DNA from: an uncultured Candidatus Saccharibacteria bacterium
Lineage (GTDB): Bacteria; Patescibacteriota; UBA1384; XYA2-FULL-43-10; 1-14-0-10-43-13
Assembly (NCBI GenBank): GCA_964543385.1
Contig: CAZIYE010000001.1
Location: 570,001 to 602,000 of the forward strand
Length of the DNA: 32,000 nucleotides
Direction: 5' to 3'
Shown here: positions 1,948-22,715 of the stretch, piece by piece
Layout: every line of letters starts with the position of its first letter
Position numbering within the stretch: position 1 is the first letter of the stretch
Translations under genes and position numbers: made by a program
Notes under the pieces: model-generated
Told to the model about the DNA's origin: nothing
Databases searched by the model: none
What the model saw: the letters and a program-made list of their open reading frames with translations, nothing else

Positions 1948-2505
1948 CTAGGCTCTTTCTACGTAGCTTCCGTCGGAGGTGTTAACAACAATTTTATCGC
2001 CTTCTTTGATAAAAATTGGTGCATCGATAATAGTTCCAGTAGACAGGGTAACTTTTTTAGTAATACTTCCTGCAGAATTGCCTTTAACAGCAGGTGGAGC
2101 AGAGATAATATCAAAGGTCATTTTGATTGGTAGTTCAATATTCAGTGGCTCGTCGCCAAAGTATAATATATCAACATTCGAATTATCAATCAGAAATTGT
2201 TTCTGATCTCCAATTTTCTGCAATGGCAATGTAAATTGCTCATATGTTTCGTTGTCCATAAAGTATGCATCCTGCTCGTCAAAATACAAATACATTACGA
2301 CTTTTTTGCTCAGATCGGCTTCTTCAACCTTGTCAGCCCCCTGAAAGGTTTTATCTATATTGCCGCCAGTTCTTAAATTCTTTAGCTTTGTCTTTACAAC
2401 AGCGCCACCACGCCCCATTTTGGAATGTGAATAAGAGATGACAATATATGGATCACCATCCAGGGTCAATTTAGCGCCAGTTTTTAAATCAGTGATACCT
2501 AACAT
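1948..2505 (-). CDS. efp: Translation elongation factor P
   Basis: 185 aa, MLGITDLKTGAKLTLDGDPYIVISYSHSKMGRGGAVVKTKLKNLRTG... Typical EF-P N-terminal KOW-like domain and length. The tip of the modification loop is Arg32 (codon 2410-2412). Confidence 0.93.
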   Translation of the reverse strand: MLGITDLKTGAKLTLDGDPYIVISYSHSKMGRGGAVVKTKLKNLRTGGNIDKTFQGADKVEEADLSKKVVMYLYFDEQDAYFMDNETYEQFTLPLQKIGDQKQFLIDNSNVDILYFGDEPLNIELPIKMTFDIISAPPAVKGNSAGSITKKVTLSTGTIIDAPIFIKEGDKIVVNTSDGSYVERA

Positions 2506-2529
2506 AAATAAGTTCCTTTCATACTAAAT

Positions 2530-2606
2530 ACAGATTGAACAGATTACAGATTAACAGCATATAAACCTCTTTTGTATCTGTTATTCGAGTGATCTGTATT
2601 CTGTAT
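2530..2606. repeat. Array of ACAGAT / ATCTGT hexamers in the rpsR-efp intergenic region
   Basis: ACAGAT occurs at 2530-2535, 2539-2544 and 2546-2551. The inverted copy ATCTGT occurs at 2576-2581 and 2592-2597, with partial copies ACAGCA at 2554-2559 and CTGTAT at 2601-2606. Confidence 0.5.
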
Positions 2607-2609
2607 GTC

Positions 2610-2816
2610 TTAGCGAACTGTAAAAGGTAGAAGAGCTAAAAATCTTGCTCTCTTGATAGCGCGCTCTACTTGTCTTTGGTGTTTAGCGCAGTTACTGTTA
2701 CGACTTGCTGGTTGAATTTTATTCCAACGATCTAAATAACGTCCTAAAGTTGTGATGTCTTTATAATCAACCTCAGTCATCTTGGCAGCACATATTAAAC
2801 ATTTTTTTCTTGACAT
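2610..2816 (-). CDS. rpsR: 30S ribosomal protein S18
   Basis: 68 aa, with ...DYKDITTLGRYL...KIQPASRNSNCAKHQRQVERAIKRARFLALLP matching bS18. It sits in the conserved rpsF-ssb-rpsR order. Confidence 0.93.
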   Translation of the reverse strand: MSRKKCLICAAKMTEVDYKDITTLGRYLDRWNKIQPASRNSNCAKHQRQVERAIKRARFLALLPFTVR

Positions 2817-2834
2817 AATTTTCCTTAAAAAGTA

Positions 2835-3269
2835 TTAAAATGGTATTTCTTCTATATCTATTTCTTCTTCGTTCTTCGGCGCAGATTGAGCGATATTTTC
2901 CACTGGATTGCTTGCCTTTGGAGTATAGCTTCCTTTGCCTCTGCTTCCTAGAGCGATGATGCTTTCAGCAATAATCTCTGTTTTGTATCTTTTCACACCG
3001 TCTTGACCTTCCCAATTTCGTGTCTGGATTCTACCTTCGACGAAGACAGGATCGCCCTTTTTTATCATTGGGGTCACATTTTCTGCTTGTTTTCCCCAGA
3101 CAACAACGTCATGGTATTCTGTGGCTTCGCCATCAGTACCGTCCTGATTCTTCCATCTTCGATTTGTCGCAACTGCGAAGTTCGCAACTGCTTGACCGTT
3201 CGGAGTGAATCTCATCTCAGGGTCTCTGGTCATATTTCCAAGTATTTGAGCTCTGTTCAAATTAAGCAT
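2835..3269 (-). CDS. ssb: Single-stranded DNA-binding protein
   Basis: 144 aa. OB-fold N-terminus MLNLNRAQILGNMTRDPEMRFTPNGQAVANFAVATNRRW, a disordered linker, and the acidic C-terminal tip EEIDIEEIPF (canonical SSB ...IPF tail). Confidence 0.93.
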   Translation of the reverse strand: MLNLNRAQILGNMTRDPEMRFTPNGQAVANFAVATNRRWKNQDGTDGEATEYHDVVVWGKQAENVTPMIKKGDPVFVEGRIQTRNWEGQDGVKRYKTEIIAESIIALGSRGKGSYTPKASNPVENIAQSAPKNEEEIDIEEIPF

Positions 3270-3300
3270 AACACCTCACTTTATTGAGAGCTGAGAGTTA

Positions 3301-3352
3301 AGTGTTTAGAGATTATTTTTTAAAATACTCTCAACTCTATACTCTAAACACT
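3301..3352. repeat. 11-bp inverted repeat between rpsF and ssb
   Basis: AGTGTTTAGAG (3301-3311) and CTCTAAACACT (3342-3352) are exact reverse complements around a 30-nt AT-rich loop. No U-tract follows on the coding (minus) strand. Confidence 0.45.
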
Positions 3353-3359
3353 GAGCTAA

Positions 3360-4046
3360 TTATAACTCATCTTTCAAGATATCGTCGAGCTCATCGTTCA
3401 ATTTTGAAAGTCTCTCAACTTCATCGTTGACTTTTTCTTTCTTAGCAGCTTTTGGAGCAGAAGCCTTTTTTTCTGGCTTAGCCTCTACTACTTCCTCTGT
3501 TTTCTCTTTCTTAGCAGCTTTTGGAGCAGAAGCCTTTTTTTCTGGCTTAGCCTCTACTACTTCTTCTTCTTCTACCTGAATCTCTTCTTTTGCAGCTTCT
3601 TCAACGACTTCTGCTTTTTCTTCTTGGCGCTTTGCCATTAGGCTTTTGCTATCTTTGGTTTCTCCTATAATAGCTTCAAATGATTTTTCGCCACCGACAA
3701 CTTCTTCGATCTCATTTGCTTGAGCGATCTCCTCAGCAGAAAGGCTTATTTTTTCATTGCTGAGCTCTTTGATAATCATTAACTGGCGAAGAACACCATC
3801 AATGTGTCGAAGGTCTTTCTCAAATTCGATTGCCTTGTTTGCTGGCAAATCAAAATAAAGGGTAACGTAAGTAGCAAAATCCTGTTTTTTAATAGGATAT
3901 GCCAACTTTCTTCGTCCCCAAATGTCTTCCTTGGTAGTCTTCCCGCCAAGTTCTTTAACGAAACCGGAAACTTTTCCGGTCACTTTGTTCAAATCACTCT
4001 CTGGTACCTCATCAGAAACGAGGTACGTAAGCTCGTACTTTCTCAA
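3360..4046 (-). CDS. rpsF: 30S ribosomal protein S6 with a long charged C-terminal extension
   Basis: The N-terminal ~95 aa (MRKYELTYLVSDEV...GRRKLAYPIKKQDFATYVTLYF...) are bS6. The start codon is TTG (4044-4046 complement), preceded by AAAGGAG. The remaining ~130 aa are Glu/Lys/Ala-rich and contain a tandem repeat. Confidence 0.9.
   Translation of the reverse strand: MRKYELTYLVSDEVPESDLNKVTGKVSGFVKELGGKTTKEDIWGRRKLAYPIKKQDFATYVTLYFDLPANKAIEFEKDLRHIDGVLRQLMIIKELSNEKISLSAEEIAQANEIEEVVGGEKSFEAIIGETKDSKSLMAKRQEEKAEVVEEAAKEEIQVEEEEVVEAKPEKKASAPKAAKKEKTEEVVEAKPEKKASAPKAAKKEKVNDEVERLSKLNDELDDILKDEL
3437..3563 (-). repeat. Tandem duplication (69-bp period) inside the rpsF tail
   Basis: A 58-bp block at 3437-3494 is repeated identically at 3506-3563. 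It encodes EEVVEAKPEKKASAPKAAKKEK twice. Confidence 0.85.
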
Positions 4047-5397: not shown

Positions 5398-5454
5398 AAT
5401 ACTTAATCAACCCCCAAGGTTGACCATCCAAACCCCATAGGAGGTCACTGTATC

Positions 5455-5619
5455 ATGGCTAGCAAGCCGACAGGTAAAGGTTTCACCTCGTCGCAGATGA
5501 AATCTCGAAGGCTCAAGGAGCAGCGGCAAAAGCGCCGTGAAAGCGAAGCGCTCGAAAAGGCGCGACGTAATCGCGAATCGCAGATGCGGCAACAGGCCCG
5601 CCGGTGGCAACCGGCATAA
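5455..5619 (+). CDS. Small (54 aa) Arg/Gln/Glu-rich basic protein of unknown function; absent from the supplied ORF track
   Basis: AGGAGG (5439-5444) lies 10 nt upstream of ATG 5455. The ORF MASKPTGKGFTSSQMKSRRLKEQRQKRRESEALEKARRNRESQMRQQARRWQPA ends at TAA 5617-5619, and a terminator hairpin follows. Codon usage and GC content are atypical for the window, so a structured RNA is an alternative. Confidence 0.5.
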   Translation: MASKPTGKGFTSSQMKSRRLKEQRQKRRESEALEKARRNRESQMRQQARRWQPA

Positions 5620-5648
5620 CTTAGCGCACTAATGCGCACTCATACTAT

Positions 5649-5690
5649 CGGCTCCCTGCACCTCGTGTACGGGAGCCGAAGTCTTTTCAG
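5649..5690 (+). terminator. Intrinsic terminator after the small ORF
   Basis: CGGCTCCC (5649-5656) pairs with GGGAGCCG (5671-5678) around a 14-nt loop. It is followed by AAGTCTTTTCAG, and a further TTTTT run starts at 5696. Confidence 0.55.
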
Positions 5691-5780: not shown

Positions 5781-8700
5781 ATGACTACAGAAGATGGGGA
5801 CAAACCAATTGCGGTAGCCGAAAATCCCGCAGAAGGAAGCGAACTGGAGGAAATCGAAGCATCGGATACCGCTTTGCTGCACAGTGATTTTGATGTGGCT
5901 GTTTCTGAGGTTGTGAGTCGACAGGAAATAGCGGCTGCAGTTTTTGATGAAGAACAAACCATTTTATCGCAGGCAAGCTCAACGGAAGAATTTATTGGAA
6001 TTGAGAATGAGACAATCCCGATCGAATTAGTGGCTAGTATCCAGGGGATTGAAAAATTATTTGAAGAAATTGACGTAATTGATATTAAGGAATTCCCATC
6101 ACTGATCCTTAAAATCAAGATACTTGCTGATGAAGCAAAAAAATTGCTCAAAAAGTCAGAGGATGGTCTTCAGGCTAGTGGAGGTGAACTTCTTGGTATT
6201 GAAAGTGAAATCAAGAAAAAAACAACTACTCTGAGTGAGGAAAATGAAAAAGATTTTTGGGGAAAACTTTTCCGCATTGGAGAGCGCAGTTCGCTTAAGA
6301 AAGCAATAAAAGATTTGAAGGTCAAAGAAGGCAAAATTTCTACGATTAAAGATGATCAATTAGGCAGAAAAACTGATGCCGAAAAATTATTAAGAAAAGT
6401 TGAAAAATATCTTGATGATACCATTGTCAAACTTGTCACTAAGATTTTCCAAAGTTTAAAAGCTGAAACTGAAAAAACTAGAGAAAAAATGACTGATCCG
6501 CGGCTAAGAGCTGGTATGAATGAGCAGCTCGTCGATTCAGAATTTTTACCACTTTTTGAGCAACTAAAATTAGAGGGGAAATATTTTAGCGATGAGGAGA
6601 TATCCTTTTATCTGCAGCACAGAAAAGAAATTGCCAGAGACGGGATTCAAGATACGTATAGTATGTCAGCTGAAGATCGAGAAGCATATGAAGCCAAATT
6701 TGATCAAATCAGAAAATTAGAGGAAAGAAGTGGCTATAAATTATACTGGAAGTCAACGGCCCTGAGTCTCGATCCTGATCGAGGTTCGACACCAGATGAG
6801 AGATATGACGATATTTTCAAATTGTTAACAGAAATAGGTTTGCGCCAAAAAGTTGATGCCGTTCTTGATCTTGTGGGTGATCTTGGTATAAGCACTGAAG
6901 CAAAAACGAAAATCTATACTGAAACGAAGAAGGAGTTCTTGGAATATTATTATAGTTATCAAGATCTAGATAAACGCCCAGACATTCAAGTCTACGCTGA
7001 TTTTTGTGAAATGCCGGGAGAATTGGGAAGATGGCAAACAACTAGGGATATTTGTATAGAGTCCGGCCTGATTGATGAGGCAACTTTCCATCAAGCCGAG
7101 GAAATACTAATAGACTATTTACAGCAAAAATATCTTAGTAAAAAAGGTGGGGAACCAGATACACAAGTCGAACAGGTTTTTAACTTGGGTAATCCCGGGG
7201 TAATCCCCGTTCTTTATCAGTTTGTAGTTTTGCACGGTAGCCACTCAGGCGAACGGGCAATGAGGCGTCTTCTTACGCTAATAGACGAAAAATATTCCCA
7301 CGAAGAGGTGCTACAGTCAACCAAAGATTTGCCAGGTGATGACCAAAAAATTTTTGAGTTGCTCCTTGATAAGGACTCATGTCTTAATAGATTTGCTAGA
7401 GAAAGCTATTTATGGACAATGTTTGGTTACCTGGGAGATCCAAAAAAAACTCTGAGGAATGAGGCATACACCCAGAAATTGCTTGATAGTGGATACCCAG
7501 AAGACAAAGCAGCCGAGTTTTTTACCGGTAGGTGGTGGGGGAAGGACTTACTTATCGGTTGCGTTGAAATTGCCGAGGTCTTGGGCATAGATAAGGAGAT
7601 AATTATCGAAGATTATTTCAAAGACATCACTCGTTCAGTTTACCTTGAAAGTCCAGATTCTTTAGAGATTATTGGGTTAGTAGCAAAAGAGCTGGGAGTG
7701 CCAGCTCTAGAAATTTATCACCGCATTGAGTCTGAGATGGTGCGAAGTAAAGAAGATAAGCAAAGCGTTCATTCTCCGCAGGGCATTATTGAATCTTGCA
7801 GAGTTTTGTCTGACATTACCGGCGAAAGCTTGAAAGCTGTGGTTGATCGATACTATCCAATCAAGGCTATTCCAACGTATCAAGAAAAGTACGCTGAAAT
7901 ATTTGAGGAATTAGCACAGATACTAGAGGTGCCAGTCGGCTCTCTTGTTTTAGAGAATCTCTTACCACAATTGTCATCCAAAAGGGGAGATAGAGGCGGA
8001 CTCTATATTGTCAATAGCAAGGATAAAAGAAATTTTTTATTCAATTCTGTTAGCTCTTTTTTACAAACCAATCCCGTACTTAGTTCCACAGAAGATTATT
8101 GCAAAATTTTCAACCTATTCGATGAATTAAATAAAGATTGGTTGGGCTCTGATTTTGAAAAATTTTCTGATGAAGAAAAAGAGAAGATAAATTCAGGCAA
8201 AGTTGATCTTGCTAGATCCTTTGGAGAGATTTTAGCAAAAGGCGGAAATCGAGAAGAGATTATTCGGGCAATTCGGGCATTTGCTCCGGTTATATCTCTG
8301 GATGACTCAAAGTATGCTGAAATATTTACTCTTTTGGCTGAAACAATGGAAATGGCTCCAGAGTCGTTGGTATCAGAAACGCTTATTTTCGACGAAAAGC
8401 TCGGACTTATTCTACCAAAAATCAAAAAAAGTGACTCAAGGTGTTTGATCGGAAAGGCACTTTTTGAATTGGCCAAAACCGATCGAGTCCTAAGTTCTGC
8501 CAAAGAGATTAAAAAAGTTTTTAATGCTTTGTCGGCCCTCCAGTTGATTGGGGCAGAAGAAGATCCATCTGATGAAGAAATCAAGGTTATTTTTGAAACA
8601 AAGGAATACCTGATTGGCTATGTGAGGGAAAAAATGAAGAATGATCCAAATAAAATAGACATAATTGGAACACTTATTTCCCTCAAATCAGTTACCTTCC

Positions 8701-11408
8701 AAGACTTGTTGCTATTTTCATCTTTCCGAGAAGAATTTCCTGACTCGCAGACCTTTGAAAAGATTTTTTCGGATGGTTTAATTGCAATTGATCCTAATTT
8801 GCAGGAAATTTTTGATAATCCTAGGAAACTCGGCACAATGAGACCGCAAATTATTTCAAAAATTATCGATTATATTGAGGAGGCTTACAAGGGAGAGGAG
8901 ATTGATAATGAAAAAATAGCCAAGGAACTTCTTTCTTTGCTGAATAATATTCGTCATATCTTCGAAAGTAGTGATTCCACGATTATAGAAAAGCGTTCTC
9001 TCTTCTTGGAGAAATATACTTTAGAAGATGCCAAAGATCCTGATTTTAAAATTGCAGTCGAATCATTAATGGAACAAGGGCTGTCATTGCACGAAGCGAT
9101 TAAGCAGCTTGTTCAGGGTGATTTTGAAGATATTTTAATCGCCTCTGGTAGTATTGATATGCAAAAACACTACAAAAAGAAGCTGAAAGACCCAAATATA
9201 TCAGAAGAAGATCGGTTGGACTTAGAGAAAAAGCTTAAGTGGATGAAAGAGGCGTACCTACAAGCTGACCAGAGAAATAGAGAAATTTTTCAACGACTGC
9301 AGAGAGGGGGCCTGACAGAAGAGGAAAGAGCAGAAATTGCTTGTCCGCTAGCAACAAGTGTATCCCAAGTTGGTCCTCCAGATGTCACTTACCCGATCCT
9401 TGACCAAGGCACTCTATGTGATGCTTTACTTGGTGAAATTGCTAAAGACCAGGAGAATAATCTTGGAGCTCATATTTCAAAAACAAGTCGTGTACCAGGA
9501 GATAGAAGTACTTTGGCTGGTAGATTGCCTTCTTATGGTAATCCTCATGGCACTCAGGTCAACCGTATCTATGGAGATGTCAGTGCTAATAAATATCAGT
9601 CATATGGACCGGATGGTACAGCAGAAACACACTTTCAGATGGGGCCAGCTCATCAATGCATTATGCTCGGTCTCCCCAGTACCGAAATATCTGCCATTGT
9701 TATTTCTGATACCTCCTTTCTTGCGGACCAAAAGAAGTACATTGCCATGAAAAACTTGTTTATTCCAATTCTCGATTCCAGTGGCAATAATCTCTGGACT
9801 CCTGAAGAGTTCGATCAAATGAAAATATTTTATTATGCGCTGAATTATAAGGGCTATCCCTTAGCCGTTATTGATAATGTTTATAAATATTATCTGGAAC
9901 TAAATCAGACAACTGAGAAAACAAAACATAATATTGTCTTGAATAAGGCCGTTGATTTGGTTAAAAAGCAGATAGAAAATGATGAACAAGGTTTTGAGGA
10001 TTTGGCGGTGCTCGTTGACTTCTTGAAGAGCAATGATCTTAACACCAAGGATATTCAATGGTATGAGGAGGCAGATTTCGAGCAAGTGATGCAAATGGTT
10101 GAAGAAAATGTCGGCGCAAAAAATCGTTGGAAAGCGAGGGATATACTCTTCATATATCCGGATGACCAAGCTAAAACTCATAGAACAATTGGCGATAGCG
10201 TTGATTATGAAAGGCAGATAACGAGGCGTCCCCATGGTTTCATCGACTCATTTCTGGACGATCAGCTTGGATACATTTCCCCTGGAAATATAGATGAAAG
10301 ACGAGCTGCCGAAGGCCACCTAACAAGTTTAATGTTCCGCGATTCGATTTCAAGGCAGGCGCGAGAAGGCATAATTGTTGATGACGTGATTGAAACTGCA
10401 GAGTATATGACAGAAAAGAAGAAGGAGCTGATGGTCAAGATTTGGGAAGACGCATGGGAAGATATATTGAAGATGGATTCCATTGATAAAGCTATGGCGG
10501 GGCTTTATAAAAAGGCAATAATCCCAGTTGTGACTGGTAGCGGTGGCCGAGGAGAGATAACGTTGGGCTCAGATTTGGATTATTCACTTCTAGTTGATGA
10601 TGATCACTTGTTGGAAATACTTCCGGAGAGAACTGATCTAGCTCAATTTATTAAAGATCTTGGTAATTTTGTTAATAATGTTCTGGCCATATCAATTAAT
10701 AAGTCTTTAGGTGAAGCGGGGATCAGAGCTGATGCTGGATTGGCACGGAAAGACCGGCAACCGTTTAGCCTGATTAGTCGGATTCGGCAATTTGAGATTA
10801 ATCCTTCTCAGGGCCGCCAGGAAGAAGAGCCGACTGAGATTATTAGTAATTATCCTCTTTTTGCAGAACACCAAGGGATTGTAGCTAAATGCAAGGAAGA
10901 TCTGATTGTTCACAATCAATCTGCCCATCTACTAGACTCATATATTCTTCGAGATCTGGAAACTGGCTTTGGAAAGGCTTCTTTCACGGCTGAATTTGAG
11001 AAATTATATGCCTGTGCAGCAAGTGGAGAATTATTGCAAAAAATTAAAGAATCACTCCAGCGTTCGTTAGTCTTCAAAATTAACTATCTTCTCTTTTCTG
11101 CTTTTGACAAGGGAACTATAGATCCGAGTGAGGCTAGTAAAATCCCTTCTGGAACGATTGATACAATTAATTTTCTTAAAGATCATAAAATTTTGACTGA
11201 TCAAGAAGCGGAAATTTGTATTGAATTATGGGCAATCACTTACAAAATTAGATTTTTGGGGGAAGTATTCTCTCCAGAAGGTCAGAATGCAGATGAGCTC
11301 AAGAAGGTGAAGAATATTACATTCAAACTAGATGATATATCCTTTGCCGAAAGAGTTCGCCTTTTCGATCTGCTTAAGCTTTTCAAGGATAATGTACTTT
11401 ATAAATAG
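5781..11408 (+). CDS. Giant (1875 aa) soluble protein. C-terminal GlnD/GlnE/DUF294-type nucleotidyltransferase with a helical substrate-binding-like domain; the N-terminal ~1550 aa are unassigned
   Basis: Single uninterrupted ORF with an ATG start. I saw no signal peptide or hydrophobic TM segment. The Pol-beta NTase signature GSGGRGEITLGSDLDYSLLVDD is at 10536-10601 (G1586...D1598, D1600). The downstream helical region resembles DUF294_C/GlnD substrate-binding domains. The N-terminus is acidic and helical with internal repeats. Confidence 0.85.
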   Translation: MTTEDGDKPIAVAENPAEGSELEEIEASDTALLHSDFDVAVSEVVSRQEIAAAVFDEEQTILSQASSTEEFIGIENETIPIELVASIQGIEKLFEEIDVIDIKEFPSLILKIKILADEAKKLLKKSEDGLQASGGELLGIESEIKKKTTTLSEENEKDFWGKLFRIGERSSLKKAIKDLKVKEGKISTIKDDQLGRKTDAEKLLRKVEKYLDDTIVKLVTKIFQSLKAETEKTREKMTDPRLRAGMNEQLVDSEFLPLFEQLKLEGKYFSDEEISFYLQHRKEIARDGIQDTYSMSAEDREAYEAKFDQIRKLEERSGYKLYWKSTALSLDPDRGSTPDERYDDIFKLLTEIGLRQKVDAVLDLVGDLGISTEAKTKIYTETKKEFLEYYYSYQDLDKRPDIQVYADFCEMPGELGRWQTTRDICIESGLIDEATFHQAEEILIDYLQQKYLSKKGGEPDTQVEQVFNLGNPGVIPVLYQFVVLHGSHSGERAMRRLLTLIDEKYSHEEVLQSTKDLPGDDQKIFELLLDKDSCLNRFARESYLWTMFGYLGDPKKTLRNEAYTQKLLDSGYPEDKAAEFFTGRWWGKDLLIGCVEIAEVLGIDKEIIIEDYFKDITRSVYLESPDSLEIIGLVAKELGVPALEIYHRIESEMVRSKEDKQSVHSPQGIIESCRVLSDITGESLKAVVDRYYPIKAIPTYQEKYAEIFEELAQILEVPVGSLVLENLLPQLSSKRGDRGGLYIVNSKDKRNFLFNSVSSFLQTNPVLSSTEDYCKIFNLFDELNKDWLGSDFEKFSDEEKEKINSGKVDLARSFGEILAKGGNREEIIRAIRAFAPVISLDDSKYAEIFTLLAETMEMAPESLVSETLIFDEKLGLILPKIKKSDSRCLIGKALFELAKTDRVLSSAKEIKKVFNALSALQLIGAEEDPSDEEIKVIFETKEYLIGYVREKMKNDPNKIDIIGTLISLKSVTFQDLLLFSSFREEFPDSQTFEKIFSDGLIAIDPNLQEIFDNPRKLGTMRPQIISKIIDYIEEAYKGEEIDNEKIAKELLSLLNNIRHIFESSDSTIIEKRSLFLEKYTLEDAKDPDFKIAVESLMEQGLSLHEAIKQLVQGDFEDILIASGSIDMQKHYKKKLKDPNISEEDRLDLEKKLKWMKEAYLQADQRNREIFQRLQRGGLTEEERAEIACPLATSVSQVGPPDVTYPILDQGTLCDALLGEIAKDQENNLGAHISKTSRVPGDRSTLAGRLPSYGNPHGTQVNRIYGDVSANKYQSYGPDGTAETHFQMGPAHQCIMLGLPSTEISAIVISDTSFLADQKKYIAMKNLFIPILDSSGNNLWTPEEFDQMKIFYYALNYKGYPLAVIDNVYKYYLELNQTTEKTKHNIVLNKAVDLVKKQIENDEQGFEDLAVLVDFLKSNDLNTKDIQWYEEADFEQVMQMVEENVGAKNRWKARDILFIYPDDQAKTHRTIGDSVDYERQITRRPHGFIDSFLDDQLGYISPGNIDERRAAEGHLTSLMFRDSISRQAREGIIVDDVIETAEYMTEKKKELMVKIWEDAWEDILKMDSIDKAMAGLYKKAIIPVVTGSGGRGEITLGSDLDYSLLVDDDHLLEILPERTDLAQFIKDLGNFVNNVLAISINKSLGEAGIRADAGLARKDRQPFSLISRIRQFEINPSQGRQEEEPTEIISNYPLFAEHQGIVAKCKEDLIVHNQSAHLLDSYILRDLETGFGKASFTAEFEKLYACAASGELLQKIKESLQRSLVFKINYLLFSAFDKGTIDPSEASKIPSGTIDTINFLKDHKILTDQEAEICIELWAITYKIRFLGEVFSPEGQNADELKKVKNITFKLDDISFAERVRLFDLLKLFKDNVLYK

Positions 11409-11482
11409 ACTATTTAAATTGTTCTTCTGCTCAATTATGTAAGTTGATATTGGGCACAGTGGTTGTTAGGATATTCAGATAA

Positions 11483-12850
11483 ATGAAAAAAATGAACAAA
11501 AAACAATCTGTTGCCCTAAGCTCGGTTTTTGCTAGTTTTGGTTTGACGGCTATGAAGTTAGTTGTAGGTATCGCTACTGGCAGTATGGGTATAATCTCTG
11601 AGGCAGCTCACTCAGCATTGGATTTTGTTGCCGCTTTAATGACCTATTTCGCAGTTAACATTGGAGATAAACCTGCTGATAAGAGGCACCCTTATGGCCA
11701 TGCTAAGGTTGAAAGTGTCTCTGCACTCTTAGAGACATGTTTGCTTGTCCTTACTAGCGCGTGGATAATCTATGAGGCAGTAAAAAGGTTAATTCACGGC
11801 AAATCGGAGGTTGAAGTTGCTTGGTATTCATTCACTGTGATAATAATCTCTATTGTCGTGGACATATCTCGGTCTAGAGCACTTTCTAAGGTTGCAAAAG
11901 AGACTAAAAGCCAGGCTCTGGAAGCCGACGCTTTACATTTCAGTTCAGACATTTTAAGCTCCTTGGTCGTTCTGGTGGGATTAATCTTTGTTTATTTCGG
12001 CAATACCACAGCTGACTCAATCGCAGCGATCATAGTTTCTTTTGTAGTACTATATGCTGCCTATGATCTAGGGCGTAAGACAATTAACGTTTTAGTAGAT
12101 ACTGCTCCAGAGGGTTTGGTTGATGAAATAAATCAGGCTGCCAGTAGTGTTGCCGGTGTCATAGGAGTTGAAAAAATTCGTGCCAGAGCAGTTGGGGCGG
12201 CAGTAATCATCGATATCACAGTATATCTGCACAGAAAAAACAATCTTCTCCTAACTCAAAAAATCTGCCAGCAAATAGAGGATAAAATAAAAAAAGATTT
12301 TTCCGATTCCGATATTACTATTCATACTAAACCTCTGCCACTAAATAGCGAAACAATTTTCGAAAGGGTTCAATTAATTGCCTCGACACATGGTCTCGCG
12401 GCCCATAATATTATTTTACACAGAGACTTCAAGGGCAAAAAATTAGACTTTGATCTTGAGGTTGATGGTAATTTAAACTTGCAAGAGGCTCACAGAATAG
12501 CTTCAGATTTGGAAAGAGAGATAGAAGCTGAATTCGGGGATATAGAAATAAATAGTCATATAGAACCACTGAAATCCGAGATTATCTCCGGGAAAAATGT
12601 AAGTGGAGTGAAAGAGGCGAAGTTAAAAAACAAAATTTTACTTATAACAAGAAACATTCCTCTCATAAGAGACATTCATGATATTTCAATAATTGAGGAT
12701 AATGATAAACTTTTCATTTCCCTCCATTGTCTATTCGACAAAAATTCTTCTCTGGATGAAGTTCACAGCGTAACGAGTAGACTTGAATACACAATTCGCG
12801 AAAATATGTCTGAGGTCTCCAAGGTTTCTATCCACGCTGAGCCAGCCTAA
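11483..12850 (+). CDS. Cation diffusion facilitator (CDF) family metal transporter with three tandem cytoplasmic domains
   Basis: 455 aa with six predicted TM helices. Site-A motifs are HSALD (TM2) and HFSSD (TM5). Three successive CTD-like modules follow, each ending in an H-x-[EK]-P motif (ITIHTKPL, INSHIEPL, VSIHAEPA). Confidence 0.88.
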   Translation: MKKMNKKQSVALSSVFASFGLTAMKLVVGIATGSMGIISEAAHSALDFVAALMTYFAVNIGDKPADKRHPYGHAKVESVSALLETCLLVLTSAWIIYEAVKRLIHGKSEVEVAWYSFTVIIISIVVDISRSRALSKVAKETKSQALEADALHFSSDILSSLVVLVGLIFVYFGNTTADSIAAIIVSFVVLYAAYDLGRKTINVLVDTAPEGLVDEINQAASSVAGVIGVEKIRARAVGAAVIIDITVYLHRKNNLLLTQKICQQIEDKIKKDFSDSDITIHTKPLPLNSETIFERVQLIASTHGLAAHNIILHRDFKGKKLDFDLEVDGNLNLQEAHRIASDLEREIEAEFGDIEINSHIEPLKSEIISGKNVSGVKEAKLKNKILLITRNIPLIRDIHDISIIEDNDKLFISLHCLFDKNSSLDEVHSVTSRLEYTIRENMSEVSKVSIHAEPA

Positions 12851-12906: not shown

Positions 12907-13920
12907 ATGGATAGTGAACTCAAAAAATTAGTTCTCATTGACTCAAACGCGATCATTCATCGTGCTTATCATGCTTTGCCAAAGACTATGTCTACTAGAA
13001 AAGGTGAATTAACGAATGTAGTTTATGGTTATACCACAACACTCATAAAAGTTTTAGAAGATATAAAACCTGATTATATTGCTGCCTCTTTTGATATTTC
13101 CAAGGCGACATTTCGAACGCAGGAGTATGCTGAATACAAGGCGCATAGAGTGAAAGCCGACCAGGAATTATATGACCAAATACCAAGAGTGCGGCAACTT
13201 TTGGAAGTTTTGAATATTCCGACATATGAGATGGAAGGCTTTGAAGCTGATGATTGTATCGGTACTATCTCCAATATGTTCGAAGAAAGAAGTCCTCAAC
13301 AAAAGTTTAAAGGCTTCAAAGTATATATTGTAACGGGGGATAAGGATGCCTTTCAGCTCATCGACGGGAACATATTCGTCTACGATCTTAAAAAGGGTCT
13401 CTCCGTCGCCCAAATCATTAATAGAAAAGTGATTGAGATAGAATGGGCGCTACAGCCAGAGGATTTTATTGATCTAAAAGCACTGGCAGGAGATCCTTCG
13501 GATAACATTCCTGGAGTGCCAGGGATAGGCCCAAAAACAGCCATTGATTTGTTGCAAAGATTTGATACTTTAATAAAACTATATGAACAGATTGAATCAA
13601 GGGATTTAAATTCCGAGGATAGCAAACAATTTGATTTGACAGCCAAAGAGCTTAATCTAAAGCCCCGTATTCTCAAACTTCTTATTGACCACAAAGACCA
13701 AGCGTTTCTTTCCCAGCGTCTTGCTACTATCCGACGTGATGTACCGTTAGATTTCAATCTTGAAGATTGTAAATGGGGAGACTATGATAAGGAGAAGGTC
13801 CAGGATTTTTTTGAGGAAATGCAATTTCATTCATTGCTTCGGAGGTTTGGGGCAGAAAGAGCTGTAGAGCCGAAAACAAAAGAGCAAAAAGAAAAAGATG
13901 AGCAATTAAAGTTACTTTAA
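12907..13920 (+). CDS. Stand-alone 5'-3' exonuclease / flap endonuclease (Pol I N-terminal domain homolog)
   Basis: 337 aa. LVLIDSNAIIHRAYHALP, FRTQEYAEYKAHR, EGFEADDCIG, VTGDKDAFQL, and the H3TH motif LAGDPSDNIPGVPGIGPKTA. It ends with the usual domain-terminal FFEEMQFHSLLRRF. Confidence 0.9.
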   Translation: MDSELKKLVLIDSNAIIHRAYHALPKTMSTRKGELTNVVYGYTTTLIKVLEDIKPDYIAASFDISKATFRTQEYAEYKAHRVKADQELYDQIPRVRQLLEVLNIPTYEMEGFEADDCIGTISNMFEERSPQQKFKGFKVYIVTGDKDAFQLIDGNIFVYDLKKGLSVAQIINRKVIEIEWALQPEDFIDLKALAGDPSDNIPGVPGIGPKTAIDLLQRFDTLIKLYEQIESRDLNSEDSKQFDLTAKELNLKPRILKLLIDHKDQAFLSQRLATIRRDVPLDFNLEDCKWGDYDKEKVQDFFEEMQFHSLLRRFGAERAVEPKTKEQKEKDEQLKLL

Positions 13921-13934
13921 AGTCAAAAAATACT

Positions 13935-15203
13935 ATGTCACAGTCAATAATAGAAAAAGCTAAAGTGATGGGCATCACAATTCCTTCTGCAACATCAGAA
14001 GATATTAATGAACAGATAAAGCCTGTTTTGCGAAAAATGGAGCTAGCAGGTATTAGAATCGATACAGCGGTTTTCAAAAGTTTAGAGGATACTTTGAGCG
14101 AAAGAGTAGAGGAGCTAGAGCTTGAGATTATTAAATTAGCTGGAGTTGAGTTTAATATCGGTTCCCCCATTCAGATGGCAGAAGTATTATTTGAGAAATT
14201 GAATCTTCCAACCGATGATCTCAAAAAAACAAAGACGGGCATCTCTACTGCAGCTAGTGAGCTCAAAAAGATTCAGGATAATCATCCGATAGTTTCTTTA
14301 ATTATTGAGCAAAGAGAGCTTTCTAAGCTAATTTCGACTTATCTAAAACCAATGCCAATCTTAGTCGATGAAAACTCGAGACTCCACACTACTTATGGTC
14401 TTGAAACATCCACTGGCAGAATTAATTCATCTGAGCCGAACTTACAGAATATTCCAATAAGGGGCAAATATGGTATGGAGATTAGAAAAGCCTTTATCGC
14501 TTCTCCTGGAGCTAAACTAATTTCTGCTGACTATTCCCAGATAGAGCTAAGGATAGTTGCATGTCTAGCTGATGACAAAAATATGATCGCATCTTTCCAG
14601 AATGGAGAAGATATTCATAGCAGGACAGCCTCTGAAATATTTGAAGTTCCTTTGCCCAAGATCACAAAGGATCAAAGACGGGTAGCTAAAGCTGTCAATT
14701 TTGGTATAGTCTATGGTCAAACACCTTTTGGTCTCTCTCAGGCTTTAGGTATAGAGACCTCGAAGGCTGCTGAATACATTATGCACTACTTCGACATACA
14801 TAAAGGTATTAAGGATTATATTAATAAAATGATTCAGCAGGCTCATAAGGAGGGTTATGTAGAAACTCTCTTCGGTATGAGAAGATATCTGCCGAATATC
14901 AACTCGAGAATCAGATATATTGCAGAGGGTGAAGAAAGAATGGCAATAAACACTCCTGTTCAGGGGACAGCATCCGAGATCATCAAATTAGCAATGATCA
15001 AGCTAGATAGCGAGTTGTCTTCAAAATATCCAGAGGCTAAAATGCTTTTAACAGTTCATGATGAACTAGTGGTGGAAGTTCCAGAAAAAGATGTAAAAAA
15101 GGTTGCGAGTGTGGTTAAAGAACTTATGGAAGGTGTAATCAAGCTTTGCATTCCATTAGAAGCAAGCGTGGGTATCGGTAATAATTGGGCTGCAACAAAG
15201 TAA
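13935..15203 (+). CDS. polA: DNA polymerase I, polymerase domain only (no 3'-5' exonuclease or vestigial domain)
   Basis: 422 aa, beginning about 25 residues before the thumb segment (PVLRKMELAGIRID...FNIGSPIQMAEVLFEKLNLP). Motif A is ISADYSQIELRIVA, motif B is RRVAKAVNFGIVYG, motif C is LLTVHDELVVEV. It starts 14 nt after the 5'-nuclease stop, in a different frame. Confidence 0.9.
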   Translation: MSQSIIEKAKVMGITIPSATSEDINEQIKPVLRKMELAGIRIDTAVFKSLEDTLSERVEELELEIIKLAGVEFNIGSPIQMAEVLFEKLNLPTDDLKKTKTGISTAASELKKIQDNHPIVSLIIEQRELSKLISTYLKPMPILVDENSRLHTTYGLETSTGRINSSEPNLQNIPIRGKYGMEIRKAFIASPGAKLISADYSQIELRIVACLADDKNMIASFQNGEDIHSRTASEIFEVPLPKITKDQRRVAKAVNFGIVYGQTPFGLSQALGIETSKAAEYIMHYFDIHKGIKDYINKMIQQAHKEGYVETLFGMRRYLPNINSRIRYIAEGEERMAINTPVQGTASEIIKLAMIKLDSELSSKYPEAKMLLTVHDELVVEVPEKDVKKVASVVKELMEGVIKLCIPLEASVGIGNNWAATK

Positions 15204-20156: not shown

Positions 20157-22715
20157 TTAAACTAATTCTTTATAGACATTATAATTTATAGCGATCGTTT
20201 TCAATCTTTGCAACCCTTGGCTTGTCAGATCGTCAATTGAATGAATGCCAAAAAGTTGTAAAACATCATAAAGATTATATTTAGGTAGTTCGCTCAATGC
20301 CTCTGTAAGATTAGTAGTTTCTTCTTTAGACAACTTCTCGGCGTCAATATAAACCTTGCTTTTTAGGGGGTCGGTTCCTGATGGTCGAAAATCCAATTCG
20401 ATGATAGCAGGGCCTAAATTGTTCTCATCTCCGAAGATCAAAGGAGTCCCTTCTGGTCTTGTTCTCCCCCCAGAGAGGGGCTCCTCATTCAAAGTCGTAA
20501 ATCTGATTCTAGACCATAATGATCTGTAATTTGGTAAAGCCATAGATAGAATATCTTTTACTTTGTCTAATCCGATATGCCCATCACGAACAGCTTTACT
20601 AATTGAAAAGAAAAAATTATTAAAGTTAGTCTTTAGATCGCTGCATTCTGCAAAAGCCTCATGTTGCTTCTTGAACGGAAGTTGAGCAATATAACCCTGA
20701 TCTCCATGCAAAATGTCAATTCTAATATCAATTTTTGACTTCAAGTCGTATTTCTTAAAACCTTGATCAATAAGATTCAAGTAAGAGTAATCTCCTAAAA
20801 AGTTATTTTCCTTTAGATATAATTCAGAGGAACGTGTAAGCTCTGAGAAAAGGGAATCCGCTGCACTTTTCTCTGGCATTGCCAATGTGTTTTTACCGAA
20901 GATGTTATAGCAATCATGGTTTAGACCAGCGACTCTACCGCCGCTTTCCTCGCTCTTAGCGTGTATCCTTATTGATTTATCCTTGTTTAAGATTATCTTA
21001 TGACCAAGCTGATCAGTAAATTCACATTCATTGTCTGAATTCTTATTGAAATACCAATTTTCGATCACTTGTTGCATTTCAGACAGGTTCTTAAAGCCGA
21101 CTCTCTCCATGAAATTTTCGAGACCTACAACTGAGTTAGCAAATTCTGCCCATGCTCTTGTCGATACGTAGGTCGTCAAATAAACCGAGTGATATTTGTC
21201 CCATGTACCGTTTTGTTTCATTCTCTCATAATCAGCAATGTCGAGAAGCAAAAACTCCTTATTCGGTGTCGGAGCAACTAGGATCTTGTCATTATCTAAA
21301 ATATAATAATCGATGCCGTATTCGGTAATAAGCCTTCTGTTATTTTCTGTATCGTCAACAACTTGTTTTACTACGAATCTGTCAGAATCTGGGTCACATT
21401 CATAAATTTTTATTCCTGTTTGATACTTTTTTAATAAATCGCTATAAGGGATAGTCTCAGCAATTTTTTTCATTGTTGTATCAACGCCAAGATGATCAAC
21501 ACTGTAGATCTCAGATCCCGGAGAACCACCGGTTTTTATAATAATATAGCCCACATTGAAAAATTGGTCTTCTTCGGGATAAATAAGATCGAAAACATCT
21601 TTATCCACACCAAGTTTTTCCATTAAGGGTTTAAGAGTTCTCCAAGTAGATCCGTTAAGAGGGTTTAAAAGTATTTTATGGCCGTTTTCTGTCGCCTTAT
21701 TAATTAGATTGACATCATCCGGAGTCACATTTAAAGCTATACGATAGAGAGTTGTCATTCTATCGTAGGTAAGAGTTTTTTTGATGTTCTTGTGATTTGC
21801 TGCTGCTATTGTTACCGAATGCCCGCCTTCTGCATATATTTTTTGTTCAATAATTTTACGCAAAATTCGGCGGTAATCTTCATATTTATCGGGCAAAAGT
21901 TGTGCGCCACCAATGCCCAGAGCTTTTCTTCCGCACATATAATTAGAACTGTGGCTTGATGAATAATATGTTGATCCAGCGGCTCCAAGTAAGTGAGTTA
22001 AAAGCGATATTACTGTTATAGTCGAACTATCTGAAAAATCACTTGTTGTAATAACGGTGATTCCTTTTTCGGCAAGAATCCTTGATTCAAACTCGATAAA
22101 TTTGGCTGTATGAGGTCTGACTTCACCGCTGATAATTTTGACTATGTTATCTTTGACAAAGGGTAATATTTTTTCGAGAGACAATCCATAGATATCTTCT
22201 ACAATCTCTATTGTTTCTTTGTCTATTGTCTCTCTTAGCCATTTTGTATGAAGGGTAAAGCCAGGATCATCTTTTTCTATTTGCTCGAGGTTAGTCCTGA
22301 TCTCATCATGAATCTGTACTAAAAACTCGGCCTCAGCTTCAACTAAAAGAGTTAAAAATAAGTCGTTGTACATCATGTTGGGATTTTCGCTGTGCAAAAT
22401 ATCCACAAAAGCTCTTATTCCGGCGGTTGATGCATCCGACTTCTTGTCAAATTCTTTCAAATGTTCGGAAAGATTATACAGATCAGCGAGTTCCGGTGTA
22501 ACATTTACATCAAAAGCCTCTTTCTTATCTAAGTCAAAAATTGGCTTGAAAGATATATCATTAGTAGATTCAGCCCACATTTCGTTGTATTTTTGGATTA
22601 TCGTTTCTCTGAGTCGGAGTTGGTTCTTCTGAATTTCACCCATTTGTCCGCTATTTTGTGCGGCAAATAAGTCCTTTAACTCCTGTTGGGATAGAGGGGT
22701 AACCTTGGCTTCCAT
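20157..22715 (-). CDS. Alpha-D-phosphohexomutase superfamily protein (putative phosphomannomutase/phosphoglucomutase), atypically long at 852 aa
   Basis: All four family motifs are present in canonical order. These are STAGIRAF (~aa 96), the phosphoserine loop SSSHSSNYMCGRK (S254-H255, versus TASHNPxxxNGxK), the metal loop CDPDSDRF (aa 440-447, versus DGDGDR), the sugar loop SEESGG (aa 588-593, versus GEESGG) and the phosphate loop RPSGTDP (aa 777-783, versus RPSGTEP). Confidence 0.75.
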   Translation of the reverse strand: MEAKVTPLSQQELKDLFAAQNSGQMGEIQKNQLRLRETIIQKYNEMWAESTNDISFKPIFDLDKKEAFDVNVTPELADLYNLSEHLKEFDKKSDASTAGIRAFVDILHSENPNMMYNDLFLTLLVEAEAEFLVQIHDEIRTNLEQIEKDDPGFTLHTKWLRETIDKETIEIVEDIYGLSLEKILPFVKDNIVKIISGEVRPHTAKFIEFESRILAEKGITVITTSDFSDSSTITVISLLTHLLGAAGSTYYSSSHSSNYMCGRKALGIGGAQLLPDKYEDYRRILRKIIEQKIYAEGGHSVTIAAANHKNIKKTLTYDRMTTLYRIALNVTPDDVNLINKATENGHKILLNPLNGSTWRTLKPLMEKLGVDKDVFDLIYPEEDQFFNVGYIIIKTGGSPGSEIYSVDHLGVDTTMKKIAETIPYSDLLKKYQTGIKIYECDPDSDRFVVKQVVDDTENNRRLITEYGIDYYILDNDKILVAPTPNKEFLLLDIADYERMKQNGTWDKYHSVYLTTYVSTRAWAEFANSVVGLENFMERVGFKNLSEMQQVIENWYFNKNSDNECEFTDQLGHKIILNKDKSIRIHAKSEESGGRVAGLNHDCYNIFGKNTLAMPEKSAADSLFSELTRSSELYLKENNFLGDYSYLNLIDQGFKKYDLKSKIDIRIDILHGDQGYIAQLPFKKQHEAFAECSDLKTNFNNFFFSISKAVRDGHIGLDKVKDILSMALPNYRSLWSRIRFTTLNEEPLSGGRTRPEGTPLIFGDENNLGPAIIELDFRPSGTDPLKSKVYIDAEKLSKEETTNLTEALSELPKYNLYDVLQLFGIHSIDDLTSQGLQRLKTIAINYNVYKELV

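Follow-up and report, generated by a model that had tools for sequence, protein, structure and literature searches.

A giant protein of a Candidatus Saccharibacteria bacterium that combines a GlnE/DrrA-type nucleotidyltransferase with a predicted ADP-ribosyltransferase-fold domain

A single gene of 1875 codons plus a stop codon (5781–11408, + strand) dominates the window analyzed here, a 32,000-nucleotide stretch from an uncultured Candidatus Saccharibacteria bacterium (GCA_964543385.1, contig CAZIYE010000001.1, positions 570,001–602,000). Near its C terminus the product carries a divergent nucleotidyltransferase (NTase) of the DNA polymerase beta (Pol-beta) superfamily, preceded by a domain that is predicted to adopt the ADP-ribosyltransferase (ART) fold. 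Both domains lie in a module conserved in a rare family of giant proteins from bacteria of the Candidate Phyla Radiation (CPR). The reading proposed here, to which we would give about an even chance, is that the protein is a cytoplasmically synthesized multi-domain enzyme of this CPR family, in which a nucleoside monophosphate (NMP) transferase and an ART-like domain are joined to a variable, targeting N terminus.

The CPR, or Patescibacteria, accounts for a large share of bacterial diversity. Its members, with genomes of about 0.7 Mb, presumably live on other cells; to our knowledge, hardly any of the molecules with which they influence their hosts or regulate themselves have been described. 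In such a genome, 5.6 kb spent on one protein is close to 1% of the total, which implies strong selection.

The nucleotidyltransferase

The NTase core occupies 10488–10862 on the + strand (aa 1570–1694). An earlier note on this DNA, made without database searches, had proposed a GlnD/GlnE/DUF294-type NTase at the C terminus, and its signature motif, GSGGRGEITLGSDLDYSLLVDD, lies exactly where that note had put it, at nt 10536–10601. The G-X11-D-X-D pattern that has been given for glutamine synthetase adenylyltransferase and SidM (PMC12409994) was found by regular expression only once in the whole protein, as GSGGRGEITLGSDLD at aa 1586–1600 (nt 10536–10580, +; G1586, S1587, D1598 and D1600), and the earlier numbering of D1598 and D1600 is therefore correct. 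A third acidic residue, D1651 (nt 10731–10733, +), and a family-specific RQEEEPTEI block (nt 10815–10841, +) follow. Only one Pfam family exceeds its cut-off anywhere in the protein, namely PF03445 (DUF294), which scores 22.1 bits with the whole protein and 24.5–25.3 bits with segments, against a threshold of 21. The margin is small; all 12 aligned relatives match the same family, the best of them with E=6.8e-8.

In a 13-sequence alignment of the C-terminal module (A1), G1586, S1587, R1590, E1592, S1597, D1598, D1600, D1651, G1653 and the block R1679-Q-x-E-E-P-T are invariant. G1586-S1587, D1598-x-D1600 and D1651 are also invariant in a profile made from 12 sequences of the NTase with the tail behind it (A4), and they line up with the corresponding residues of minimal NTases, aminoglycoside nucleotidyltransferase and DrrA. 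The A4 profile also matches the DrrA sequence itself with E=6.9e-4, over the G-S...D-x-D stretch and the third Asp. Among the 12 relatives, one matches SidM_N and another PF03710 (GlnE) at E=0.0025. A PADLOC scan gave weak matches to PDC-M70A (18.6 bits) and PDC-S09, both confined to the generic G-S...D-x-D stretch.

The structural evidence points the same way. An AlphaFold2 model of the 901-aa module, computed on A1, has a predicted local distance difference test score (pLDDT) of 84.7 and a predicted template modelling score (pTM) of 0.82, with the catalytic residues on the expected strands (E606–611, E625–631 and E676–678 of the model). In a Foldseek search of the PDB this model matched the AT-C domain of Escherichia coli GlnE (3k7d, E=5.9e-7), the AT-N domain of GlnE (1v4a, 1.2e-5) and DrrA in complex with Rab8a (6yx5_B, 1e-4), each with a probability of 1.0, while aminoglycoside NTases and MNT antitoxins came far lower in the list. 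The predicted fold is thus of the GlnE/DrrA type, a Pol-beta core between helical subdomains, and the earlier assignment of the NTase holds on all three counts, by Pfam match, by profile match and by fold.

Judged from its sequence, the domain shows the features by which the Pol-beta NTase superfamily is recognized: an hG[GS] loop, a D-x-D pair and a third acidic residue. It holds every residue that two-metal NMP transfer would require (the G-S loop, D1598, D1600 and D1651), and the strict conservation of those that bind metal makes it very likely to be active. In an exhaustive single-sequence search (see below) no ordinary GlnD, GlnE or DUF294 protein was matched at E≤1e-3, so the NTase must be strongly divergent from these.

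The predicted ADP-ribosyltransferase-fold domain

The second domain of interest lies at 9348–9908 on the + strand (aa 1190–1376) and was recognized by AlphaFold2 and Foldseek. The earlier note had described a globular segment here as rich in Gly, Pro and His and had considered the NTase to be the only recognizable part of the protein. By sequence this remains so, PF03445 being the sole match, but by structure prediction the Gly/Pro/His-rich segment has an ART fold. When aa 1166–1380 were modelled alone on a 24-sequence alignment (A3), AlphaFold2 returned a pLDDT of 88.1 and a pTM of 0.87, and ART-fold proteins made up by far the larger part of the 50 best Foldseek matches in the PDB. The best of these is yeast Tpt1 (7yw4; E=1.1e-3, probability 1.0), and the list includes DarT from three species (probability 0.8–0.93), pierisin-1, scabin, mosquitocidal toxin and cholera toxin, as well as archaeal Tpt1/KptA and the ART toxins of Rhs proteins. 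The model of the 901-aa module independently drew matches to DarT, with probabilities of 0.75–0.87. It is because the hit list is so uniform, and because two independent models agree, that aa 1190–1376 are assigned to the ART fold on the strength of the models. None of the 24 domain sequences has a Pfam match, and a profile search of the PDB gave no sequence match for the domain. As modelled, then, this is a new, Pfam-dark ART-fold family that falls outside every ART family defined by sequence.

Which residues might form an active site? The positions of interest in the window protein are Q1196 on strand 1, H1231 on strand 2, H1291, E1302 and E1343-F-D1345. The canonical ART triads (H-Y-E, R-S-E and H-H-h, on strands 1, 2 and 5) are not kept across the family. 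H1291, on the other hand, is invariant in all 24 sequences, E1343-F-D1345 is kept in 21–23 of them, and E1302, which stands before a later strand, in 19. The strand 1 position, Gln in the window protein, is His in 13 of the 24, and the strand 2 position, His in the window protein, is Asp in 15. The two co-vary perfectly: Q/H in nine sequences (the window's own included), H/D in 13 and K/D in two. Such a swap suggests that a histidine is needed at this site, and the conservation as a whole indicates that the domain is under selective constraint.

The domain also occurs in other settings. In two shorter proteins (P0037 and P0040) the whole ART-like domain is joined to a Pol-beta NTase of another kind, with the motif GSTGRGT...SDFDF and a weak match to PF01909; no PDB match was found for this second NTase in P0037. 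The pairing of an ART-like domain with an NTase has therefore recurred, which argues that it is functional. A 322-aa protein (P0039) carries the C-terminal half of the ART-like domain beside an unrelated region that by eye is kinase-like (GSNPG..., ...ANWD...). Together, these fusions mark the ART-like domain as a mobile module. When the more distant relatives of the P0025 group (see below) were compared with the ART-like core by hhalign, only the helix that follows it ('GYP') aligned, with a probability of 38%.

The helical domains

The two catalytic folds are embedded in helical domains. Behind the NTase, an all-helical domain runs to the C terminus (10863–11405, +; aa 1695–1875; helices at 721–899 of the AlphaFold2 model). 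In A1 it has an invariant K..LQR..FK motif, and the extreme C terminus, F..VLYK, is kept throughout the close family. The earlier note had expected a helical substrate-binding region of the kind paired with GlnD, GlnE and DUF294 enzymes. That the region is all-helical is clear from the model, but its identity with DUF294_C (PF10335) is weak: the window protein has no match, three of 12 relatives match below the cut-off (best E 0.0015; P0029 at 17.4 against 22.5 bits), and the A4 profile has a weak second aligned stretch on the helical tail of DrrA (residues 208–297), so that the alignment there is partial. The tail is thus weakly consistent with a substrate-binding domain of the DUF294_C/GlnE type. 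The helical domains of GlnD, GlnE and DUF294_C have been assigned to the HEPN superfamily as inactive members that lack its catalytic motif (PMC3710099).

Between the ART-fold domain and the NTase lies a second conserved domain of predicted helices (9909–10487, +; aa 1377–1569), with the motifs KH.IV and NDLN..WY in A1. This is probably the N-terminal helical part of a complete adenylyltransferase domain like those of GlnE, since the Foldseek alignments with GlnE span 560–590 columns, more than the NTase core and the tail together. The module opens with another conserved domain (8703–9347, +; aa 975–1189), which is all-helical in the model at a pLDDT of about 60–95 and is defined in A1 by the motifs DP..F.NP.KLG, ESSDS..KR..FL, ILI.SG and AD.RNR; it has no match in the PDB or in Pfam. 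Each of these two helical blocks has invariant residues of its own.

A rare family of the Candidate Phyla Radiation

To find relatives, aa 676–1875 were compared exhaustively by phmmer with 1.84e9 (1.84 billion) cluster representatives. Forty proteins matched, 24 of them with E<1e-30. The members of this close family are mostly 1500–3600 aa long, and their alignment to the window protein is confined to aa ~975–1875. Their N-terminal parts are unrelated to that of the window protein, with the exception of P0008 over aa 316–651. A second tier of proteins of about 1950–2000 aa (P0025–P0035) has only the NTase and the helical tail in common with it. This modifies an earlier statement that some 1550 aa could be matched to no family: aa 975–1875 constitute a conserved multi-domain family module, and only about 975 aa are lineage-specific.

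A scan of one genome per species with a smaller alignment (A2) located six loci, all in CPR bacteria: one each in Magasanikiibacteriota, Parcubacteria, Saccharibacteria and Berkelbacteria and two in Peribacteria. The open reading frames (ORFs) at these loci exceed 1300–2300 aa, even where they are cut by the end of the locus. A scan of metagenome contigs gave one locus, on a contig that had already been seen, and a scan of genome contigs with the full protein gave no match. The family is rare, with about 24 clusters in 1.84 billion representatives, and the named genomes are all CPR.

The choice of search method matters for proteins of this kind. Word-indexed searches were run with the whole protein and with the 13-sequence module alignment, and apart from the query they recovered just P0002 and P0017; such searches miss this giant-protein family, which exhaustive HMMER searching detects. 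NCBIfam and PHROGs scans of the giant protein returned nothing, a PDB sequence search with the whole protein nothing meaningful, and a fold search of viral proteins in BFVD only uncharacterized proteins. Seven overlapping segments compared with Pfam at E≤10 gave nothing credible outside the NTase. Weak matches to OrfB_IS605 (13–16 bits, against a cut-off of 30.5) and to DnaJ-like proteins were rejected as chance.

Several relatives have features of their own. In one of the Ca. Peribacteria loci (L010, 4455–5474), the match to the family module falls outside any ORF of at least 250 aa under genetic code 11, which suggests that this genome uses an alternative code, with UGA reassigned, or that the gene is degraded. 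P0017 (L006, 3872–9046) has 811 aa and consists of the module only; it starts at 6611, abutting an upstream ORF of 912 aa that ends at 6610, and the two are probably one giant gene broken by a frameshift or a sequencing error. Upstream of the 912-aa ORF, at a distance of 360 nt, is a gene for a Fic-domain protein. The 3599-aa P0013 (L017, 1–16800; GCA_900089805.1, FLOH01000225.1) starts 6 nt after an ORF of 6610 aa with a weak HD-domain match, and is laid out as a DUF3990-like N-terminal domain, the module, a hydrophobic stretch that by eye resembles a transmembrane helix and a long C-terminal region.

The open reading frame and the N-terminal region

Is such a long reading frame real? The ORF begins with ATG, has no internal stop codons and is the longest in the window. 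At the window's composition of about 39% G+C, some 6.5% of random codons would be stops (about one in 15), and by our own arithmetic from the base composition 1875 open codons would arise by chance with a probability of about 1e-54, so this is not a chance open frame. The single 5.6-kb ORF of the earlier note thus stands, although its description of the other genes as small was loose, since the window also holds ORFs of 852 and 734 aa. The possibility of an assembly chimera, which that note had raised, was rejected. The DNA of the ORF is identical base for base in three Logan assemblies from separate runs, as are its flanks for up to 3 kb in either direction, and in P0008 the shared N-terminal stretch likewise precedes the C-terminal module. 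The source samples are those of runs SRR12261223, SRR12261225 and SRR12261226. The same 1875-aa protein is also present on the 671-kb NCBI contig. The highest 19-residue Kyte-Doolittle mean is only 1.5, so no transmembrane helix is predicted, and the first 100 aa do not resemble a signal peptide; the earlier view that both are absent is confirmed.

The compositional features noted earlier were all found. Residues 1–100 (5781–6080, +) are acidic, with 26% Asp plus Glu, 3% Lys plus Arg and a net charge of -23. K/E-rich stretches lie within aa 101–300; the main one, aa 101–260 (6081–6560, +; 19–21% Asp plus Glu, 18–23% Lys plus Arg), is by its composition probably helical or coiled-coil. Gly and Pro make up 19% of aa 1201–1300. 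Within the N-terminal region a relative could be detected for one part only, aa 316–651 (6726–7733, +), which resembles aa 305–648 of P0008 (phmmer domain E=1.8e-13). By eye, a helix-turn-helix (HTH)-like motif, hAxxLGhxxxxhh, can be seen in five copies of about 27 aa within aa 590–870 (7548–8390, +; starts at aa 590, 627, 668, 703 and 844), but a hidden Markov model built from these copies only finds its own seeds again, and a self-BLAST of the giant protein showed no internal repeats. No Pfam family was found in the N-terminal ~975 aa of the window protein or in the corresponding parts of nine relatives scanned, so that for this region, at least, the earlier statement that it matches no family is upheld by profile searches.

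The gene neighborhood

The giant gene is surrounded by ordinary housekeeping genes. Those upstream encode GroEL, a PRC-barrel protein, EF-P, SSB, S6 and YchF; downstream are genes for a CDF transporter, a 5'-3' exonuclease, a family A DNA polymerase domain, holA, a signal peptidase, PNPase and UDG. The window's PNPase is 77–80% identical to proteins labelled 'Patescibacteria group bacterium' and 'Candidatus Berkelbacteria bacterium', which, with the 671-kb contig, agrees with the earlier supposition of a reduced-genome organism: this is a CPR bacterium. The split PolA of the window (see below) points the same way. Across about 12 genomic contexts there is no conserved neighbor gene of the family. 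The sole context that hints at a GlnE-like link is that of P0003 (L016, giant gene at 6001–12513), where a glutamine synthetase gene (2481–3824, - strand) lies 2 kb upstream; it is a single case.

Some other features of the window deserve mention. A sharp GC-rich island at 5441–5680 (+), in the 500-nt gap that precedes the giant gene, has 57.5% G+C against 25–33% in its flanks. Inside it, a 54-codon ORF (5455–5619) would encode a very basic peptide (MASKPTGKGF...RRWQPA); it has AGGAGG 8–9 nt upstream and a strong hairpin plus a T-run behind. The RNA folds with z = -4.2 relative to shuffled sequences and matches no Rfam family; Rfam and tRNA scans of the whole window likewise returned nothing. 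The island is either a gene for a small basic protein or a structured RNA. PolA is split into adjacent genes (12907–15203, +) for a 337-aa 5'-3' exonuclease and a 422-aa polymerase domain, and Pfam detects no 3'-5' exonuclease domain in them. Ribosomal protein S6 (3360–4046, -) has an acidic and lysine-rich C-terminal extension of about 130 aa, which contains an exact 22-aa direct repeat in two copies, EEVVEAKPEKKASAPKAAKKEK. Between genes resembling a UDP-sugar epimerase and a mannose-1-phosphate guanylyltransferase lies the 852-aa ORF (20157–22715, -), without a Pfam match; its 'SSSHSSNY' stretch bears a loose resemblance to the active-site serine loop of phosphohexomutases.

What might the protein do?

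Read from the start of the module, the C-terminal ~900 aa would comprise a helical domain, the ART fold, another helical domain, the GlnE/DrrA/DUF294-type NTase and a helical domain like an inactive HEPN. We propose that the NTase would move AMP (most likely) or another NMP from the NTP to a hydroxyl group on a macromolecular target, forming a phosphodiester; the most likely class of target would be protein. GlnE acts in this way on a Tyr of glutamine synthetase, and DrrA on a Tyr of Rab1. The ART-fold domain, always coupled to the NTase, might bind NAD+, ADP-ribose or a nucleotide, or it might modify the same target a second time, in an NAD+-dependent reaction. The lineage-variable N terminus of about 975 aa, with its acidic tail, K/E stretch and HTH-like repeats, would serve as a scaffold for targeting or sensing. 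The target could be either a protein of the bacterium itself, in which case the enzyme would be a regulator, or a molecule of the host cell, in which case it would be an effector. The proposal turns an unannotated giant ORF into something defined, with named residues (D1598, D1600, D1651, H1291, E1302 and Q1196/H1231), and the architecture would unite two classic 'writer' chemistries, NMPylation and that of the ART fold.

A number of observations weigh against this proposal. The ART call comes from predicted structure only and is marginal, with a best E value of 1.1e-3 and query-normalized TM scores of 0.37–0.44. The subfamily to which the window protein belongs has Gln in place of the first-strand His and Met in place of Arg 1295, which the other subfamily keeps, and it has lost E1302 in four of nine members; since both Arg 1295 and, in these members, E1302 are missing, ART activity may have gone, and the domain may, by its sequence, be changed or inactive in this subfamily. 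The direction of the NTase reaction may also be the reverse, that is, de-AMPylation, because the AT-N domain of GlnE, which removes AMP, matches the model almost as well as AT-C. The best ART matches (Tpt1/KptA, DarT, pierisin and scabin) act on RNA or DNA; the earlier idea of an effector or regulator that nucleotidylylates proteins is still plausible, but these matches speak for nucleic acids as substrates with no less weight. Finally, the roughly 12 contexts examined hold no conserved neighbor, no secretion signal for the giant protein and no target gene.

Could the protein leave the cell? A special case of the proposal is that the module is delivered from an epibiotic CPR cell into its host, where it would AMPylate and/or ADP-ribosylate host proteins, as an analogue of DrrA/SidM and of the mono-ART of SidE. 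The NTase is DrrA-like by structure and by profile, one relative matches SidM_N, the ART fold is typical of toxins, and the family's named genomes are confined to a group that is thought to be host-dependent. The enzymatic end is conserved while the N termini are large and fast-diverging, the conserved extreme C terminus (...F..VLYK) could, speculatively, be a recognition tag, and in P0013 the module shares one ORF with a DUF3990-like domain, a stretch that by eye is transmembrane-like and a long C-terminal extension. There is, however, no evidence of export: neither a signal peptide nor nearby secretion-system genes nor an immunity-like small gene was seen in the same contexts, the neighborhood is a housekeeping one, and polymorphic toxins vary at the C terminus, whereas it is the N terminus that varies here. 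Translocation is thus an unlikely account, at perhaps one chance in a handful. A bolder version, rather less credible still, is a 'dual-warhead' enzyme in which a Tpt1/DarT-like ART and a GlnE/DrrA-like NMP-transferase would act in sequence on one target, delivered or displayed towards the host, with the N-terminal ~1000 aa setting the specificity. In a comparable manner, SidE effectors combine ADP-ribosylation with a phosphoryl transfer as the second step. If true, this would be a previously unrecognized composite modification made by episymbiotic CPR bacteria.

The remaining alternatives look to other targets. Tpt1 and KptA act on 2'- or 5'-phosphates, and DarT, pierisin and scabin on bases, and the fact that the nearest folds (Tpt1 at probability 1.0, DarT at about 0.9, then pierisin, scabin and KptA) are all nucleic-acid-directed raises the idea of an end-modifying or repair enzyme, or a toxin, whose ART-like domain acts on RNA or DNA while the NTase adds nucleotides to the same molecule or adenylylates it. 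The NTase motif of P0037 and P0040 (GSTGRGT...SDFDF), which by our own reading resembles that of RNA-end NTases, and the HTH-like repeats of the N-terminal region would fit. Yet the giant protein's NTase groups with GlnE, DrrA and DUF294 and not with CCA-adding enzymes, poly(A) polymerases or CD-NTases, neither the RNA-binding lobe of Tpt1 nor its Arg-His-Arg-Arg tetrad could be identified (the tetrad without a structural check), the neighbors examined include no ligase or kinase-phosphatase genes of RNA repair, and at E values of about 1e-3 to 1e-1 the Foldseek order of ART subfamilies does not discriminate. We therefore regard a nucleic-acid target as improbable. Still more doubtful is a stand-alone anti-phage protein, acting by abortive infection, in which a variable N-terminal sensor would unleash the ART-like/NTase module on cellular or phage macromolecules. 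A variable 'sensor' with a conserved 'effector', a patchy distribution and parts of the DarT, MNT and HEPN type are all familiar from defence and toxin-antitoxin systems, and there are the weak PADLOC matches at the NTase (PDC-M70A, 18.6 bits, and PDC-S09); these, however, cover just the generic G-S...D-x-D stretch, no PHROG or phage association was found, and in place of an antitoxin or partner gene, a defence island or a mobile element the neighbors are GroEL, EF-P, SSB, S6, YchF, PolA and holA. The least likely rival, one that we think very hard to sustain, is an endogenous GlnE/GlnD-like regulator of nitrogen or other metabolism that would reversibly adenylylate or uridylylate the cell's own glutamine synthetase or a PII-like protein. 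The two GlnE domains are its nearest matches in fold and P0003 has its glutamine synthetase neighbor, but there is a single NTase domain where GlnE has two, the HD and ACT domains of GlnD are missing, the window protein matches neither PF03710 nor PF08335, no glutamine synthetase or PII gene is present in the 32-kb window or in contexts other than that of P0003, and the ART-fold domain and the variable N terminus of 975 aa have no counterpart in GlnE or GlnD.

Comparison with known systems

How does the giant protein compare with the enzymes that it resembles? GlnE (3k7d and 1v4a) is the best structural match of its C-terminal ~500 aa, and the two have in common the G-X11-D-X-D motif, the third Asp and the helical subdomains on either side of the Pol-beta core. 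Unlike GlnE, the giant protein has one NTase domain instead of two and no PII-binding regulatory linker; the identity is only 11–14%, the GlnE families PF03710 and PF08335 do not match the window protein, and the latter adds the ART-fold domain and the long variable N terminus. From GlnD it differs in that segment scans at E≤10 gave no HD or ACT domain matches. The resemblance to DrrA/SidM (6yx5 and 3nku) extends from the fold (E 1e-4) and the profile match (E 6.9e-4) to the general character of the two, both being large multi-domain proteins of host-dependent bacteria. However, the giant protein lacks the guanine nucleotide exchange factor (GEF) and P4M domains, its NTase is C-terminal and not N-terminal, it shows no sign of secretion, and its presumed host would be prokaryotic. 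Typical DUF294 proteins, for which we know of no tested function, in keeping with the Pfam name, carry cNMP-binding and CBS domains at the N terminus; Pfam found neither kind here, whether in the window protein or in the nine relatives scanned.

As modelled, aa 1190–1376 have the fold of Tpt1/KptA, DarT and pierisin/scabin. Unlike Tpt1-KptA (PF01885) and DarT (DUF4433), none of the 24 domain sequences matches a sequence model of these families, and, unlike DarT, the giant protein has no macrodomain (DarG-like) partner among the neighbors in the contexts examined. The lobe by which Tpt1 binds RNA, at its N terminus, and its tetrad have, as noted above, no counterpart identified here. In place of the canonical ART triads the family has a conserved set of its own, H1291 and E1343-F-D1345, and the window protein has Q1196. 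The strand 1 'ALTHG' of the other subfamily (b) and the strand 2 'AHIS' of the window protein recall HGT and H-h-S, the motifs of H-type ARTs; this is offered as a lead only.

In the literature searched, including that naming DUF294 together with ADP-ribosyltransferase, no description of a giant architecture with an NTase and an ART fold was found. A new ART-fold family and a divergent branch of the GlnE/DUF294 NTases should be useful for the annotation of metagenomes. Compared with the systems above, the giant protein thus presents known catalytic folds in an undescribed, conserved giant architecture that is restricted to the CPR.

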